From Escherichia phage vB_EcoS-IME253, in the sequence record NC_047810.1: a DNA stretch of 46,717 nt; one strand, given 5' to 3'. The notes below the pieces were generated by a model, which made no database searches, had not been told where the DNA came from, and saw nothing but the letters and a program-made list of their open reading frames with translations. This document shows positions 1,331 to 44,213 of this stretch, piece after piece. Made by a program: the position numbers and the translations under genes. The first letter of the stretch is position 1, and the number at the start of each line of letters is the position of its first letter.

Positions 1331-1412
1331 AGAGCCTGATACTAGTAGCATTAGTCCCACTGTTTAGCTTTACTATCTTATACTTTATCGTAATGAATTA
1401 AGGAACTTATAA

Positions 1413-2549
1413 ATGGCAACTGCAAAAATTACCAACGAAGAACTGCGCGAAGAACTGGCAAATGGCATGACAAACAAGGCAATCGCAGAGAAGTACGGCA
1501 TGAACATTCGCAACGTTGAATTGCGTCGCAGTAAGCTGGCGAAGAGTGGAGAATTGCACGGAAACCCAGGCATCAAGAAGCTAGTTCCTGACGGTTATAT
1601 GGTTAAGGGTACGTCAACCATGATTGACGCTGATGGTAACGAGAAGATTAGATGGGTCAAAACCTCAATAGACAATGAGCGCCTTGAGGTTTTAATGGAG
1701 CAAGCTCGCGAGGCATTCTGCTCTGAGTTGCCAAAGGCCACTCCATCTGAATCACCAAATGTTAACTTTGATAATGACACACTTGCGATGTATCCAGTTT
1801 TTGATTTGCACATTGGGGCGATGGCCCACAAACATGAGTGTGGCGAAAACTATGATACAGCAACAGCAGAGAATGTTATGAATGGGTTCTTTGACTACGC
1901 TGTAGATAAGGCGCCAAACTCTAAGAATGCTGTATTGGTATTGGGTGGTGATTTCCTACATTACGATTCCCTAGAGGCTAAAACCCCGGCCTCAGGCCAT
2001 ATCTTAGACTCTGACAGTCGTTACGCTAAGATTGTTTATGTCGCAATCCGGTCAGTTCGTCGTGCGATCTCTCGAATGATGGAGAAGCACCAAGTTATTG
2101 ATATTAAAGTAATAAGTGGAAATCACGACGAAGCAGGGATGGTTTGGCTTCGCGCTGCTATTGCTGCATTTTATGAAGACGAGCCTCGCGTAAATGTTGA
2201 TGTTAGCCCAGCTGCAATGATGATGACAAGCTTTGGAACGACGCTTATTGGATACACTCATGGCCACCAAATGCGGAAAGCCGATACTCGACTAACTGTT
2301 ATGGCAACTGATTTTCGTAAGTTATTTGGTCAAAGTGAGTATGTTTACACACATAGTGGCCACTGGCATTCTCAGAAGATTACAGAAACAAACTTGGGAA
2401 TTGATGAGGTTCATGGGCAGCTGGGAAGTCCTGACGCGTACTCAGCAAATGGCGGCTGGCGCTCTCAACGTCAAGCGGCAGTTATTGTCTACCATAAAGA
2501 ATTCGGTGAAGTTGGCCGCTTCATTTGTCGCCCTAAAATGTTTAGCTAA
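1413..2549 (+). CDS. calcineurin-like metallophosphoesterase with N-terminal HTH-like segment
   Basis: Motifs DLHIG, GGDFLHYD, GNHDE, YTHGH in order typical of metallophosphatases; RBS aaggaa before ATG; TAATAG double stop. Confidence 0.6.
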   Translation: MATAKITNEELREELANGMTNKAIAEKYGMNIRNVELRRSKLAKSGELHGNPGIKKLVPDGYMVKGTSTMIDADGNEKIRWVKTSIDNERLEVLMEQAREAFCSELPKATPSESPNVNFDNDTLAMYPVFDLHIGAMAHKHECGENYDTATAENVMNGFFDYAVDKAPNSKNAVLVLGGDFLHYDSLEAKTPASGHILDSDSRYAKIVYVAIRSVRRAISRMMEKHQVIDIKVISGNHDEAGMVWLRAAIAAFYEDEPRVNVDVSPAAMMMTSFGTTLIGYTHGHQMRKADTRLTVMATDFRKLFGQSEYVYTHSGHWHSQKITETNLGIDEVHGQLGSPDAYSANGGWRSQRQAAVIVYHKEFGEVGRFICRPKMFS

Positions 2550-2593
2550 TAGCACTTTTTGCCTAACCCATGCCGTAGAAATGCGGCATAATT
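2549..2593 (+). promoter_or_regulatory. palindrome-plus-hexamer element (copy 2, degenerate)
   Basis: atagcactttttgcctaa after TAA stop; CATAAT 2588-2593; leader catcgaaacgag; next ATG 2634. Confidence 0.4.
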
Positions 2594-2633: not shown

Positions 2634-2810
2634 ATGACCAAGATGATTTATTGCACAAAGAACAACTCCAAGACCCTGCCATTTACAGTTAACCAGCCGT
2701 ACAATGCAGAGTACCAGGGTGATGGATATTACAAGATTTACAGCGACGATATGACGTGGATTTTAGCGCCGATTGAAGGTTCACTGGTTGAATTTATTAT
2801 CGCTGACTAG
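2634..2810 (+). CDS. hypothetical small protein (58 aa)
   Basis: ATG 2634 after conserved leader catcgaaacgag and gaggaaacacaag; followed by terminator. Confidence 0.4.
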   Translation: MTKMIYCTKNNSKTLPFTVNQPYNAEYQGDGYYKIYSDDMTWILAPIEGSLVEFIIAD

Positions 2811-4445: not shown

Positions 4446-6029
4446 TCACCCCAACAGTCGTGGATTAATGTAAACTTTATCACCAATCAGGCACGTATAG
4501 TTTTTCTCATCAAGCATTGGCAGTAAGTGATCTTTAATCTTTGTCATTACACCAGCCTGAGCTTCGAACGGCTTAACCTTACGAGCCGCTTCATATAGAG
4601 AACGAATACCCACTACTCCTTTACCGTTCTTGCCTTGCTTAATTAGAATATCAATCAGCTTATTCATCTCGGCATTGTCGCCAGCGTGACCAGCGGCGTT
4701 TGCAGATGACAGATAAGTCTTGCTAAGTTCATGGAACATAATTACAGCTTCTTGCATGGTGTCGAGCTCGATCTCTCTGGACTTCTGTGGACTACCGCCA
4801 TTTGGGTTGAACCAGTTGCGCACAGTGTGAAGAACAGCTGCAATCCTTATGGCCTGCTTATCGAACTTACCCAACGCGCCGCGCAACATTGTATGTGAAT
4901 ACTTCCCGCCATCTGCAAGGTGAGGTTCCATCTCCTGACGCGCACGGTTGAGGTATTTCATCGCTGAGTTGCTTACTGTCAACTTAACATCTTGCTCGTT
5001 CATGATCTCATGAACAAGACGGAAGTAGTCGGCCTTCAGGCCACCATCAATTGGCTCGTAAGTTGAATTTCCATTCTCATCAACGAATACACGCTCACCC
5101 AGGAATGACTTTTCACGGACGAGAAGGAAACGCTCCGATACACCGATACCACGTGCGCCAGCGTTCATTATCGCGTTTATTGTCTCGTCCTGCGCAATTA
5201 CAGAGATACAACCCATAGCAACGAAACTCATGTTGTTCTCTGCATTAGCACGCGCGATAGATACGTTACCAGCATCCCATGCCTTGAGTACGAGTTCGCT
5301 GTTCGTTTTCTTCGAGCCGTCACCATAAGTCATGCCAAGCAGTGAGTTCACGCTCGTCGCCTCATCCGAGATGACCGCGAAGTTGCCCTGGCGGTTGTTT
5401 ATTCGCGCAAGACCTTCCGGCGTGGTATCTGATACAGGGAAAACGATATCGCATAGTCTCTCGAGCTTTTCCTCAAGTTCCTCCTTTTCCTCAAAGAGAG
5501 ACGCCATCTCTGATGGAGATTTTTCCTGCTTCATCTCTTTTGATAACGCAGATAGTTTGGCCATAATCTTTTTACGCTCATGCTTTCGCACTTCATTAAG
5601 CCGCTCAGTCTCAGCAATCATTGGAGCAATTGAAAGTGAGTTAATTGCTGATTTACCAGTCGATGGTGGCTGGCTTGTCACGACATAAAGAGAAGTAGGC
5701 TGCTGAGTTCCATGATACTCAACTGTAAATCGGCCTAGCATCGCAGCGGAAATACACCCCAGAAAGTGCATATAAGCTGACGACTCAGGGAACTGAACGG
5801 AACGGGCAATATTGGCTGACAGCTTACCAACAACATCAATGTCATTACCGAGTGAGATTACTGGATACTTGTCATTTGCAGCATCAATCTCGACAGGTGC
5901 TTTCCAGAATGATTGAGACTGGCGATAGCCATTGGCATTAATGGCGACGCGCAGGGGCGGGAGGTTGTCCGCGGCTGCAATTGCCATAACCTGTTCAACA
6001 GATAGTTTATCTTCGTTGAAATCAAACAT
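4446..6029 (-). CDS. large hypothetical protein (527 aa) with P-loop-like STGKS segment and coiled-coil region
   Basis: Long ORF with RBS aaggag; N- and C-terminal segments homologous to the 174-aa product of 8721..9245. Confidence 0.6.
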   Translation of the reverse strand: MFDFNEDKLSVEQVMAIAAADNLPPLRVAINANGYRQSQSFWKAPVEIDAANDKYPVISLGNDIDVVGKLSANIARSVQFPESSAYMHFLGCISAAMLGRFTVEYHGTQQPTSLYVVTSQPPSTGKSAINSLSIAPMIAETERLNEVRKHERKKIMAKLSALSKEMKQEKSPSEMASLFEEKEELEEKLERLCDIVFPVSDTTPEGLARINNRQGNFAVISDEATSVNSLLGMTYGDGSKKTNSELVLKAWDAGNVSIARANAENNMSFVAMGCISVIAQDETINAIMNAGARGIGVSERFLLVREKSFLGERVFVDENGNSTYEPIDGGLKADYFRLVHEIMNEQDVKLTVSNSAMKYLNRARQEMEPHLADGGKYSHTMLRGALGKFDKQAIRIAAVLHTVRNWFNPNGGSPQKSREIELDTMQEAVIMFHELSKTYLSSANAAGHAGDNAEMNKLIDILIKQGKNGKGVVGIRSLYEAARKVKPFEAQAGVMTKIKDHLLPMLDEKNYTCLIGDKVYINPRLLG

Positions 6030-8184: not shown

Positions 8185-8721
8185 ATGAATAAGGTAACTT
8201 TAGGTGATGTAATTCGTGAGATGGTCCGCCAGGCGATTAAGTCCGACAAGAAACTATGTGTAGTTCCAGTTCGAAAGATATTCAACATGGTCAACGGGTA
8301 TGATTATCCGGATGAAATCATCGACGAGGAAACTGGAGAGTTCAAAACGCCTGGTCGTGAAATCGCAGGCCTGAAAAGTTCATACATCTATAACACCGCC
8401 GCAAGAATGCAGGAGCTTCGCGATATTGATATGCACGTAAAGCATCGCTTTATCTGGCTGGCGTCAGGCGAGGAAACGGTAGCGCGCAAGGTTGATGGCG
8501 ATGGCGCGGACAAGAACCTTCTGATCCAGCTTGAGCCTGGTGCTCTTAAGCCGACAAAGCGTAAGACTGCAGATATTGAGAAAGAGGCAGCCACCATTGA
8601 AAGGTTTAAGTCACGACTACTCAAGATCGCGCCGAATATTATAGACCTGCAAGGCGAACAAAAAGAAGGCGCGCTTATTGCCCTGGCACGCTACTATGAA
8701 ATGATTAAGGAGGCTAACTGA
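8185..8721 (+). CDS. hypothetical protein (178 aa)
   Basis: First rightward gene after the AT-rich divergent region; RBS gagg. Confidence 0.5.
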   Translation: MNKVTLGDVIREMVRQAIKSDKKLCVVPVRKIFNMVNGYDYPDEIIDEETGEFKTPGREIAGLKSSYIYNTAARMQELRDIDMHVKHRFIWLASGEETVARKVDGDGADKNLLIQLEPGALKPTKRKTADIEKEAATIERFKSRLLKIAPNIIDLQGEQKEGALIALARYYEMIKEAN

Positions 8722-9245
8722 TGTTTAATTTAAACGAAGAGAAACTGACGGACGAGCAGATTATGAATATTGCTATCCAGGATGATCTGCCGCCACTGCG
8801 GGTTGCAATCAATGCTAACGGTTATCGTCATGTTCAGCACCTCTGGGGCCAGCCTGATGCATCGGAAGTCTACAGAGATGAAGCGCTGGGAGTTCTGATT
8901 AAGTTGATCAGGAAGATGGCAAGGAACGGAAAGGGAGTGGTGGGTGTCAAGTCTGTACACGAAGCTGCACGTAAGGTTAAGCCGTTCGAGGGTCGAAATG
9001 GAATCATGGCGCGCATTAAGGATGAGCTCATCCCCGCACTCGATAAGATGAATGTTACCTGTCTAATTGGAGATAAGGTTTATGTCCACTCGGCAATCAT
9101 TGATGAGTACTGGCAACCAAACTTCAAAACTTACGAAGGTGAGCACACTAGTAGACTACCATACCACTTGCTGTACAGTGAGGGTGAGGTGGAGATGGCC
9201 GTAGAGTTCTATCGGAAAGCTAAATCACTTCTGAACGGTAAATAG
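8721..9245 (+). CDS. mini-paralog of the 527-aa protein (174 aa; shared N- and C-terminal modules only)
   Basis: N-terminus MFNLNEEKL..LPPLRVAINANGYR and C-terminal NGKGVVG..EAARKVKPFE..CLIGDKVY match 4446..6029; TGATG coupling to the upstream gene. Confidence 0.55.
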   Translation: MFNLNEEKLTDEQIMNIAIQDDLPPLRVAINANGYRHVQHLWGQPDASEVYRDEALGVLIKLIRKMARNGKGVVGVKSVHEAARKVKPFEGRNGIMARIKDELIPALDKMNVTCLIGDKVYVHSAIIDEYWQPNFKTYEGEHTSRLPYHLLYSEGEVEMAVEFYRKAKSLLNGK

Positions 9246-10081: not shown

Positions 10082-10121
10082 CATGAATTGCTAAAACAAC
10101 ATTGGGGTAATTTGATATAGT
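10078..10121 (+). promoter_or_regulatory. palindrome-plus-hexamer element (copy 6)
   Basis: atagcatgaattgctaaa; TATAGT 10116-10121; leader ccccatcgaaacgaa; next ATG 10152. Confidence 0.5.
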
Positions 10122-10151
10122 TACCCCATCGAAACGAACGAGGAAGCAGGA

Positions 10152-43683: not shown

Positions 43684-44157
43684 TTACTCTTTAGCTTTTC
43701 GTGCTGCCTCATTAGCGGCCTTGATCTTTCTCCATGAACGACACTCTGGTTTGGTTGCTAACTCGGACTCAGTAACCACACGCAGCATGTGACGCTTCTT
43801 GCACCGTAATGTCAGCGGCTTTCCGTTGCCGTCGAATTGCAGGTCTGGTCGGCAGAATGTAGCGCGAAAACCTTCTCCATTTCGTTTGTAGTAGTTGTGC
43901 GATAGCTGAGCACCACGTGCAGAAATCATACCACGCTTAAACCATTCCTCTACAGCCTGTGGTGTTACCTTTAACTGCTTTGCGATATTCGCCTTTGTGC
44001 CGAAGAAATCAAGAACAATCTCCAGTCGCGCGCGCAACCCTGCCCTTACTTCATCTTTCAAAACGTAGTAACCTGAAGGTCGTTTTCGTTGTTTTTTGTC
44101 TTCAGTGCGGACAGTTCCGTTATTACCGTTGATTGTTCTCTTGTCGACTGTATTCAT
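43684..44157 (-). CDS. HTH DNA-binding protein (putative transcriptional regulator)
   Basis: Basic N-terminus and HTH-like IAKQLKVTPQAVEEWFKRG; sits in divergent region. Confidence 0.4.
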   Translation of the reverse strand: MNTVDKRTINGNNGTVRTEDKKQRKRPSGYYVLKDEVRAGLRARLEIVLDFFGTKANIAKQLKVTPQAVEEWFKRGMISARGAQLSHNYYKRNGEGFRATFCRPDLQFDGNGKPLTLRCKKRHMLRVVTESELATKPECRSWRKIKAANEAARKAKE

Positions 44158-44169
44158 TTCATTACCTCA

Positions 44170-44213
44170 ATAGCATTTTTTGTTAAAAGTCATTCTGATT
44201 TGATGGTAGTATT
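44170..44213 (+). promoter_or_regulatory. palindrome-plus-hexamer element (copy 15, variant)
   Basis: atagcattttttgttaaaa; TAGTAT 44207-44212 (21-nt spacer); upstream of helicase ATG 44259 in divergent region. Confidence 0.4.

Follow-up and report, generated by a model that had tools for sequence, protein, structure and literature searches.

The question raised by positions 1413..2549 of the genome of Escherichia phage vB_EcoS-IME253 (NC_047810.1; 46,717 nt, the whole stretch of DNA that was analysed, hereafter the window) is what the metallophosphoesterase with a helix-turn-helix (HTH)-like N-terminus encoded there does, and whether it reads the palindrome repeated throughout this genome. 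A first-pass annotation had presented it as an unusual fusion protein which could be a targeted nuclease or a regulator and which was a candidate binder of the palindrome. The reading favoured here, to which we give a probability of about 55%, is that of a stand-alone, HTH-tethered nuclease of phage DNA metabolism, belonging to the Mre11/SbcD/DP1 branch and independent of Rad50/SbcC; the protein is probably not the palindrome reader. The window represents the entire genome, circularly permuted, of a coliphage resembling Rtp (Drexlerviridae, Rtpvirus), with a nucleotide identity of 96% to ZL19 and 90% to Rtp (first 8 kb), and the open reading frame (ORF) of 378 codons, running from ATG to TAA, lies exactly where it had been placed before.

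The phosphoesterase is 99.7% identical to a 'hypothetical protein' of ZL19, 97% to Rtp gp61 and 87% to T1 gp16 (the Rtp record itself remarks on the high similarity of gp61 to T1 gp16), and it is the orthologue of the product of TLS gene 66 (gp66). It matches the profile of PHROG 704, 'DNA repair exonuclease', over the full length (E=5.7e-155, residues 4-377 against positions 2-389 of 390), and there is no material difference from T1 gp16, Rtp gp61 and TLS gp66, whose genes occupy the same locus position directly 5' of a (SH3)-holin-endolysin-spanin cassette. The family is already catalogued, the names in use, namely 'DNA repair exonuclease', 'phosphoesterase' and, in the re-annotation of TLS, 'proof-reading exonuclease', being predictions. 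The gene is among the most persistent in Drexlerviridae, where it is core (508 of 522 genomes), and thousands of further phages and prophages also have it. Homologues were detected by tblastn in 2,048 phage records spanning Drexlerviridae, Jersey-like Guernseyvirinae, the podovirus phiEa100 and phages of Klebsiella, Salmonella, Vibrio, Campylobacter, Rhodobacter and Flavobacterium, and an exhaustive search against sequences representing clusters at 50% identity gave 4,696 relatives at E<=1e-3 and 1,021 at E<=1e-30, most of them 370-420 aa long. PHROG 704-type homologues are also encoded in many proteobacterial genomes in prophage contexts.

A sequence search of the PDB with the single phosphoesterase returned only ArnD, at chance level (E=0.11), and the comparison with NCBIfam gave noise-level matches only. 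Some publications considered as prior work were rejected, as the Metis and PUA-Cal-HAD preprints deal with host metallophosphatases and T-even denA and the Avs7 paper covers, of Drexlerviridae, only capsid proteins. No description of an N-terminal HTH or β-hairpin module of the PHROG 704 family was found in the searchable papers. What is added here is the three-module anatomy of the protein, the recognition of its HTH as conserved, structured and basic, the placement of its core with DP1, Mre11 and SbcD, and the lack of co-distribution with the palindrome.

All five motifs of calcineurin-like metallophosphoesterases (DxH / GD / GNH[DE] / H / GHxH) are present in order in the catalytic core, including the four that had been recognised earlier (DLHIG, GGDFLHYD, GNHDE and YTHGH) and a fifth, GHWH, which had been overlooked. 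Conservation was assessed in 128 representatives 30-40% identical to the query, in which the metal ligands do not vary: the invariant columns are D131, H133, D180, T191, N237, H238, H283, G316 and H319, followed by G75, W81, E142, H183, D185, D199, D201, R203, R259, H317 and D341, which are at least 90% conserved, H183 and H317 each at 96% or more (H317 at 96%). Together with the full-length PHROG 704 match and the modelled fold, this conservation puts the motif set far outside what chance would give. Since all the metal ligands and the catalytic histidine are kept, the predicted enzyme is expected to be active. Motif II reads GDxxH, as in Mre11/SbcD, whereas the protein-phosphatase/λ-phosphatase branch has GDxxDRG. 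On the C-terminal side of motif II there is a family-specific, almost invariant insertion, T-P-x-S-G-H-x-L-D-x-D-x-R (residues 191-203), which may form a loop that binds the substrate. Within the calcineurin-like metallophosphoesterase superfamily, PHROG 704 is a divergent branch.

The AlphaFold2 model built with the 128-sequence alignment has a mean predicted local distance difference test score (pLDDT) of 93.7 and a predicted template modelling score of 0.78, and its core adopts the metallophosphoesterase fold, a double β-sheet sandwich. The top three structural neighbours are DP1, Mre11 and SbcD, all of them DNA nucleases. The Z scores of the structure comparison were 14.7 for Mre11 and 14.6 for SbcD, with only 185-189 residues of the phosphoesterase aligning to the nuclease domains of these two, followed by 14.0 for MJ0936, 13.4 for LpxH and 12.4 for Rv0805, while PPP-type protein phosphatases did not exceed 9.4. 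The family sequence profile matches SbcD/Mre11 weakly (E ~0.07), and the neighbours in the viral structure library are uncharacterised homologues, several of them auto-labelled 'DNA polymerase II small subunit' by independent pipelines. On the evidence of the model, the core is placed in the DNA-nuclease branch of metallophosphoesterases because its closest folds are DP1, Mre11 and SbcD and because of the weak SbcD/Mre11 profile match, and for the same structural reason a nuclease is the best-supported activity.

With Mre11/SbcD the phosphoesterase shares the nuclease-domain fold, the GDxxH motif II and the GNHD motif III, but the C-terminal capping domain is absent, the chain ending with the last core strand and helix at residue 378. 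Where Mre11/SbcD have the cap and the Rad50/SbcC partner, the phosphoesterase carries an N-terminal HTH and a β-hairpin module. Among the annotated genes on the complete Rtp, T1, Webervirus and Jersey maps there is neither a Rad50/SbcC nor a DP2 gene.

The fold is likewise similar to the phosphodiesterase domain of PolD DP1, which brings up the meaning implied by the name in the TLS re-annotation, a DP1-like proofreading 3'-5' exonuclease assisting the replicase. According to the TLS paper (PMC11447400), T1-like phages do not encode a DNA polymerase, no DNA polymerase gene is present in the Rtp or T1 maps, and the 'DNA polymerase II small subunit' labels of distant viral homologues point in the same direction. 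DP1, however, needs to be complexed with DP2 in order to work, and neither DP2 nor PolD is present; in contrast to DP1 and to the inactive eukaryotic polymerase B-subunits, the phosphoesterase has neither a DP2 partner nor a recognisable OB fold. Jersey and phiEa100 have retained the gene despite possessing their own family A polymerases (not PolD), so that it occurs in phages with and without their own polymerase, unlike DP1, which pairs with DP2. Host Pol III, moreover, already has the ε proofreader. A proofreading role is accordingly regarded as improbable.

The region preceding motif I, with a median length of 141 residues across the family, is where the first-pass annotation had noted a basic, HTH-like segment in the first 50 residues. 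The HTH part of that description is borne out: residues 8-44 form three helices with a pLDDT of 94-97 in the full-length model, and the same three helices are obtained with a pLDDT of 95-97 when residues 1-112 are modelled alone, so the segment, for which disorder had been considered as well, is predicted to be ordered. The basic character needs correction, since the first 50 residues, taken together, are just slightly basic and the positive charge is concentrated on helix 3 (residues 30-46). In the model the three-helix bundle superimposes on known HTH domains and has the general HTH fold, all structural neighbours of the domain being HTH DNA-binding domains, including σ region 4 and Lrp/AsnC. 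A profile built from residues 1-112 matches at least 15 LuxR/NarL/FixJ/GerE structures (E ~1e-3 to 2e-2, in every case over positions 8-55, so that the similarity to helices 1-3 is consistent), among them RhlR, NarL, GerE, VraR, DesR and FixJ; the top match of this search, '8vd6 CAP REPEAT', was rejected as spurious, its score being the sum of five weak matches to repeat units. Sub-threshold Pfam signals for GerE, HTH_24 and Sigma70_r4_2 were found at residues 13-46, GerE (PF00196) scoring 13.9 bits, short of its cut-off of 23.5. In comparison with the HTH domains of LuxR/GerE/NarL, σ70 region 4 and serine resolvases, that of the phosphoesterase consists of three helices with no receiver or ligand domain, and the models lack the dimerisation helix, which is the fourth one in LuxR/GerE domains.

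Across the family the HTH profile was detected in 125 of 151 sequences and the hairpin profile in 142 of them. The HTH is the least sequence-conserved domain, with 19% identity to the query compared with 37% for the core, although the net charge of helix 3 has a median of +3 and reaches at least +2 in 95% of the members. Because the family conserves basic charge and not sequence, the HTH is best viewed as a predicted DNA tether of low specificity, and the pattern fits binding to the nucleic-acid backbone with little conserved sequence specificity. Judging from these profiles, the HTH-hairpin-phosphoesterase layout is the norm in PHROG 704, contrary to the idea of an unusual fusion; the HTH and the phosphoesterase had both been seen before, and the conserved β-hairpin with its helix between them had been missed. 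Some of the representatives that the HTH profile does not pick up have a variant N-terminus with another HTH type in the same place, P0202 with Sigma70_r4/HTH_11 and a second, MarR-like HTH and P0160 with a homeodomain-like HTH_23, and there are further long N-termini, reaching 284 residues in P0268, to which no Pfam family matches.

Taken together, the catalytic residues, the fold, the basic HTH, a genomic context of DNA and nucleotide metabolism and the literature on host-DNA degradation make the reading as a DNA-tethered nuclease the best supported one. The N-terminal HTH, of the σ-region-4/LuxR/resolvase type, would bind duplex DNA as a low-specificity tether; a linker of about 15 residues would join it to the family-specific β-hairpin and helix module and then to the complete catalytic core, whose local concentration on duplex DNA would be raised in this way. 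The core would then cleave the phosphodiester bonds of DNA, acting as 3'-5' exonuclease, as single-strand endonuclease or as both, like DP1, Mre11 and SbcD. We infer a dependence on metal, presumably Mn2+, a DNA substrate, DNA binding by the HTH and a biological role in the DNA metabolism of the phage during the middle-to-late period. The leading specific role would be the breakdown of host or unpackaged DNA to nucleotides for re-use, and an alternative one the processing of DNA ends in recombination-dependent replication.

T1 and TLS are described as degrading the host genome and recycling its nucleotides, with no gene product assigned to this process in the TLS paper (PMC11447400). A precedent is provided by Gp48 of mycobacteriophage A10ZJ24, a metallophosphoesterase for which nuclease activity was shown experimentally and which degrades host DNA early in infection (PMC12287305). 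Like the phosphoesterase it is a stand-alone phage enzyme with five motifs, but it is smaller, has motif I at D10, is devoid of HTH and hairpin and is not detectably of the same family, its counter-defence role having been shown only in Mycobacterium (PMC12287305). Because of the position of motif I and the lack of an N-terminal extension, Gp48 is considered an analogue and not an orthologue.

A bolder version of the nuclease reading, which we regard as rather unlikely, would make the phosphoesterase the nuclease, long without an assigned gene, by which T1-like phages break down the chromosome of their host, limiting generalised transduction by T1 and feeding nucleotide salvage, with the hairpin and the lysis linkage marking a distinct and widespread late 'DNA clean-up' class. 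The T1 'gene 2.5' class, which from classical T1 genetics we take to comprise host-degradation mutants, is a lead only in this respect. If the phosphoesterase does degrade host DNA, the poor transduction by wild-type T1 would be explained, there would be relevance to defence systems sensing the products of host-DNA breakdown, and the Mre11 family would gain a Rad50-independent, HTH-anchored variant; if it does not, the gene is an ordinary, catalogued one of phage DNA metabolism. Sitting among nucleotide-salvage genes, it is a candidate for T1 host-DNA breakdown that deletion can test.

Several points weigh against the tethered-nuclease reading. The Mre11 capping domain is missing, as is a Rad50/SbcC or DP2 partner, and the score against Pfam Metallophos (PF00149) is 18.1 bits, below the gathering threshold of 21.5, although some relatives exceed it (for example P0165 at 25.1 bits). 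The HTH, being the least conserved domain, could mediate protein contacts instead. No functional study of the family, biochemical or genetic, was found in the literature. The T7-type endonuclease and exonuclease genes that adjoin the phosphoesterase gene in phiEa100 would make a role in host-DNA degradation partly redundant there. Finally, the nuclease model does not account for the linkage to lysis genes: an endolysin gene from one of three unrelated families lies on the same strand within ~1-1.5 kb in 28 of the 58 loci of the context survey, for which related loci were sought with a 5-sequence alignment. The endolysin gene is mostly 5' of the phosphoesterase gene in prophages and 3' of it in Drexlerviridae.

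The lysis linkage, which also holds for the 508 Drexlerviridae genomes, speaks for a different reading, in which the protein would hydrolyse small molecules as a phosphodiesterase or pyrophosphatase, its substrates being cyclic (oligo)nucleotide immune signals, nucleotides or a lipid A precursor, and would thereby counteract host defence or support lysis, with the HTH serving for protein contacts or autoregulation. The structures of MJ0936, LpxH, YfcE, Rv0805 and GpdQ are within ~2-4 Z units of the top folds, which agrees with such an activity, but those top three are DNA nucleases, and the conserved basic HTH, replaced by other HTH types at the same position in some relatives, points to nucleic acid. 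The phosphoesterase has no PADLOC match and no match to a known anti-defence family, the neighbouring genes belong to DNA and deoxynucleoside monophosphate (dNMP) metabolism, and there is no signal peptide, the N-terminus being a cytoplasmic HTH. A small-molecule enzyme is therefore thought very improbable.

The surroundings of the gene otherwise accord with the nuclease reading. In Rtp-like phages it is located 3' of genes for a helicase, a VRR-NUC protein and small ORFs and 5' of the SH3-like/holin/endolysin/spanin unit. In a Webervirus the next genes 3' of it code for polynucleotide kinase (Pnk) and dNMP kinase; in phiEa100 it has endonuclease VII on one side and Pnk/ligase on the other, the order being phosphoesterase-Pnk-x-ligase; and in a Vibrio phage it adjoins the SSB gene. 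The recurrent 3' genes in the 58 loci are dNMP kinase-like (9 loci), dNMP phosphatase (5) and nucleoside 2-deoxyribosyltransferase (5), and all three kinds are seen in prophage loci. The neighbour clusters that initially ranked highest were shadow ORFs overlapping the phosphoesterase gene and were discarded. In eight loci a PHROG 9683 'protease' gene is found 5' of the phosphoesterase gene.

The proximity to Pnk genes suggests by analogy with the metallophosphoesterase domain of bacterial Pnkp that the protein may be an end-healing enzyme working with Pnk (and ligase), either as a 2',3'-cyclic phosphodiesterase/3'-phosphatase or as a nuclease cleaning 3' ends, in the repair of tRNA or DNA that defence nucleases of the host have cut. 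Besides the gene order in phiEa100, Pnk is encoded directly 3' in a Webervirus and frequently so across Drexlerviridae (PMC13164509), Rtp (gp4) and T1 (gp64) encode a Pnk, Rtp also encodes a Stp-like peptide, and there is a weak NCBIfam match to the ligase-associated PdeM (E=0.038). The window, however, keeps the gene without any Pnk or dNMP kinase homologue, tblastn having given no match in its whole length to the Pnk of Rtp (gp4) and T1 (gp64) or to the dNMP kinase of related Drexlerviridae, so the function of the phosphoesterase does not depend on Pnk; in Drexlerviridae the phosphoesterase gene is core and Pnk is not. Motif II is not of the GDxxDRG type found in the λ-phosphatase/Pnkp branch, PPP phosphatases rank low structurally, and an HTH of the duplex-DNA type would be unexpected on a tRNA repair enzyme. 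An end-healing role is hence given little probability compared with the HTH-tethered nuclease.

As for the palindrome, its existence is confirmed. Among plain palindromic words of 6-12 nt only GTTAAC stood out (30 copies against 13.7 expected), and it was rejected as a false lead, having no extended context and ranking 7th of 180 hexamers of equal composition. The element surfaced only when spaced dyads were counted: TAGCA-N5-TGCTA occurs in the window in 19 copies at no more than one mismatch, where 1.95 are expected and none of 100 shuffles gave more than 5. The copies are intergenic, often straight after a stop codon, and always 22 nt 5' of a −10-like hexamer (TATAGT, TATAAT or TATATT), after which come a conserved leader and a ribosome-binding site; the dyad is thereby placed at about −49 to −35. 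Because of the fixed 22-nt distance to the −10 hexamer, this context is better explained by σ70 than by σ54, and a σ54 promoter was rejected also because TGGCAC-N5-TTGC is 2 nt longer and requires GG. This element has been described before: it is the 'direct repeat' aaATAGCACnnnTTGnTAAAA of TLS, with 21 copies there and similar repeats in T1, Rtp and Rogue1, and the roles of stoperator, enhancer site or UP element were proposed for it in the TLS paper (PMC11447400). The available sections of that paper do not mention the fixed spacing to the −10 hexamer or the co-occurrence with the gp23-like regulator described below (PMC11447400).

That the HTH of the phosphoesterase recognises TAGCA-N5-TGCTA, making the protein a site-targeted nuclease or a regulator at promoter-proximal repeats, is suggested by the reality of the dyad and by its placement, with the centre near −42, in combination with the resemblance of the HTH to LuxR/NarL domains. 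A centre near −42 is the position of LuxR-type class II activators. Both the gene and the repeat are core in Drexlerviridae, and no binder of the repeat is assigned in the TLS paper (PMC11447400). The distribution of the dyad, which is restricted to Drexlerviridae, speaks against this. It is found in 21 copies in T1, 15 in a Klebsiella Webervirus and 11 in a 20-kb part of TLS, and is also present in Rtp, but the complete genomes of Jersey (one copy; simulations 0-3) and phiEa100 (one copy; simulations 0-5) lack it, as do 56 other partial loci encoding the phosphoesterase. Jersey and phiEa100 nevertheless keep the HTH-phosphoesterase with a very similar helix 3, which retains the Drexlerviridae signature R-x-V...R-L-A-(K/R)-x-G, phiEa100 transcribes by its own T7-like RNA polymerase, and the HTH is without the LuxR/GerE dimerisation helix. 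The part of the earlier proposal which concerned the palindrome is accordingly disfavoured, while the predicted nuclease, with DP1, Mre11 and SbcD as the closest folds, is retained; binding of the dyad by the phosphoesterase is considered most unlikely.

A gene coding for a gp23/Rtp52-like HTH 'transcriptional regulator' (PHROG 2856) is present in exactly the dyad-bearing genomes, its product being 100% identical to Rtp52 (residues 1-142), 67% to the Webervirus homologue and 52% to T1 gp23, and no homologue was found in Jersey. Since the dyad tracks this regulator and not the phosphoesterase, the gp23-like regulator or host RNA polymerase is a better candidate for the dyad binder, and on grounds of co-occurrence the regulator is the best candidate, to which the question of the palindrome binder is thus moved. 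The dyad copy at 44171 sits in the divergent promoter region between the genes of the gp23-like regulator and the helicase.

The degenerate dyad abutting the phosphoesterase stop codon is presumed to belong to the promoter region of the SH3-like/holin/endolysin unit and lies outside the phosphoesterase CDS (coding sequence). Short inverted repeats overlap or just precede the −10-like hexamer 3' of many dyads, for example at 2570-2589 (ATGCCG...CGGCAT) and ~10100-10125, with GGGGTA...TACCCC and CCCGGCGAAAGCCGGG in T1 and the Webervirus, and the T1 record lists some of them as rho-independent terminators; the arrangement of inverted repeat and −10 hexamer looks like a compact terminator/promoter junction. 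The coordinates of the features are collected in Table 1.

Table 1 Features of the HTH-metallophosphoesterase gene, the dyad and related loci in the window.
Feature	Coordinates	Strand	Remarks
Ribosome-binding site AAGGA	1400..1404	+	8 nt 5' of ATG; from sequence
CDS, HTH-metallophosphoesterase, 378 aa	1413..2549	+	orthologue of Rtp gp61, T1 gp16, TLS gp66; PHROG 704
Three-helix HTH, residues 8-44 (helices 8-16, 21-28, 32-44)	1434..1544	+	helix 3 basic
Flexible linker, residues 45-60	1545..1592	+	pLDDT 59-77 in both models
β-hairpin (62-71, 77-86) and helix 88-104, residues 61-105	1593..1727	+	signature VKGxST...DG....WVKT; G75 and W81 near-invariant
Metallophosphoesterase catalytic core, residues 120-378	1770..2546	+	
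Motif I, DLHIG, residues 131-135	1803..1817	+	D131 and H133 metal ligands; invariant in 128 representatives
Motif II, GGDFLHYD, residues 178-185	1944..1967	+	D180 bridging ligand; H183; from conservation
Motif III, GNHDE, residues 236-240	2118..2132	+	N237 and H238; invariant
Motif IV, YTHGH, residues 281-285	2253..2267	+	H283 invariant; from conservation
Motif V, GHWH, residues 316-319	2358..2369	+	H317 and H319; from conservation; absent from the earlier motif list
Degenerate dyad TAGCACTTTTTGCCT (2550-2564), 22-nt gap, −10-like CATAAT (2587-2592)	2550..2592	+	abuts the phosphoesterase stop codon
58-aa ORF (PHROG 4788; counterpart of Rtp gp62 / T1 gp14)	2634-2810	+	between the phosphoesterase gene and holin
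HTH 'transcriptional regulator', 157 aa, PHROG 2856, gp23/Rtp52-like	43684-44157	-	homologues only in dyad-bearing genomes
Dyad copies (15-nt sites)	638, 6892, 7538, 9243, 10079, 10851, 14428, 22449, 26459, 35600, 36825, 38493, 42639, 44171, 46672	both orientations	
Typical dyad form			TAGCAC[G/T]AATTGCTAAA
Dyad-bearing duplex sequence			TAGCACGAATTGCTAAA

The 58-aa ORF listed in Table 1 sits where the stand-alone SH3 (DUF7244) protein, recently described in the lysis module of Drexlerviridae, is encoded (PMC13164509). Another dyad, GTCTC-N6-GAGAC, is enriched in phiEa100 (6 copies; simulation maximum 2-3), where it is probably part of terminators or of the promoters for the phage RNA polymerase. 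A number of short palindromes are strongly under-represented in the window, namely GATC (75 copies against 177 expected), CTAG (64 against 177) and GTAC (90 against 177), and CCCGGG, CCTAGG and GGTACC have no copies at all, which fits avoidance of restriction or Dam sites. Elsewhere in the window, a 174-aa ORF (8721-9245, plus strand; PHROG 7327) and the C-terminal part of a D5/DUF3987-type helicase (4446-6029, minus strand; PHROG 2373) gave reciprocal profile matches, suggesting that the former may be a stand-alone duplicated C-terminal domain of the helicase.

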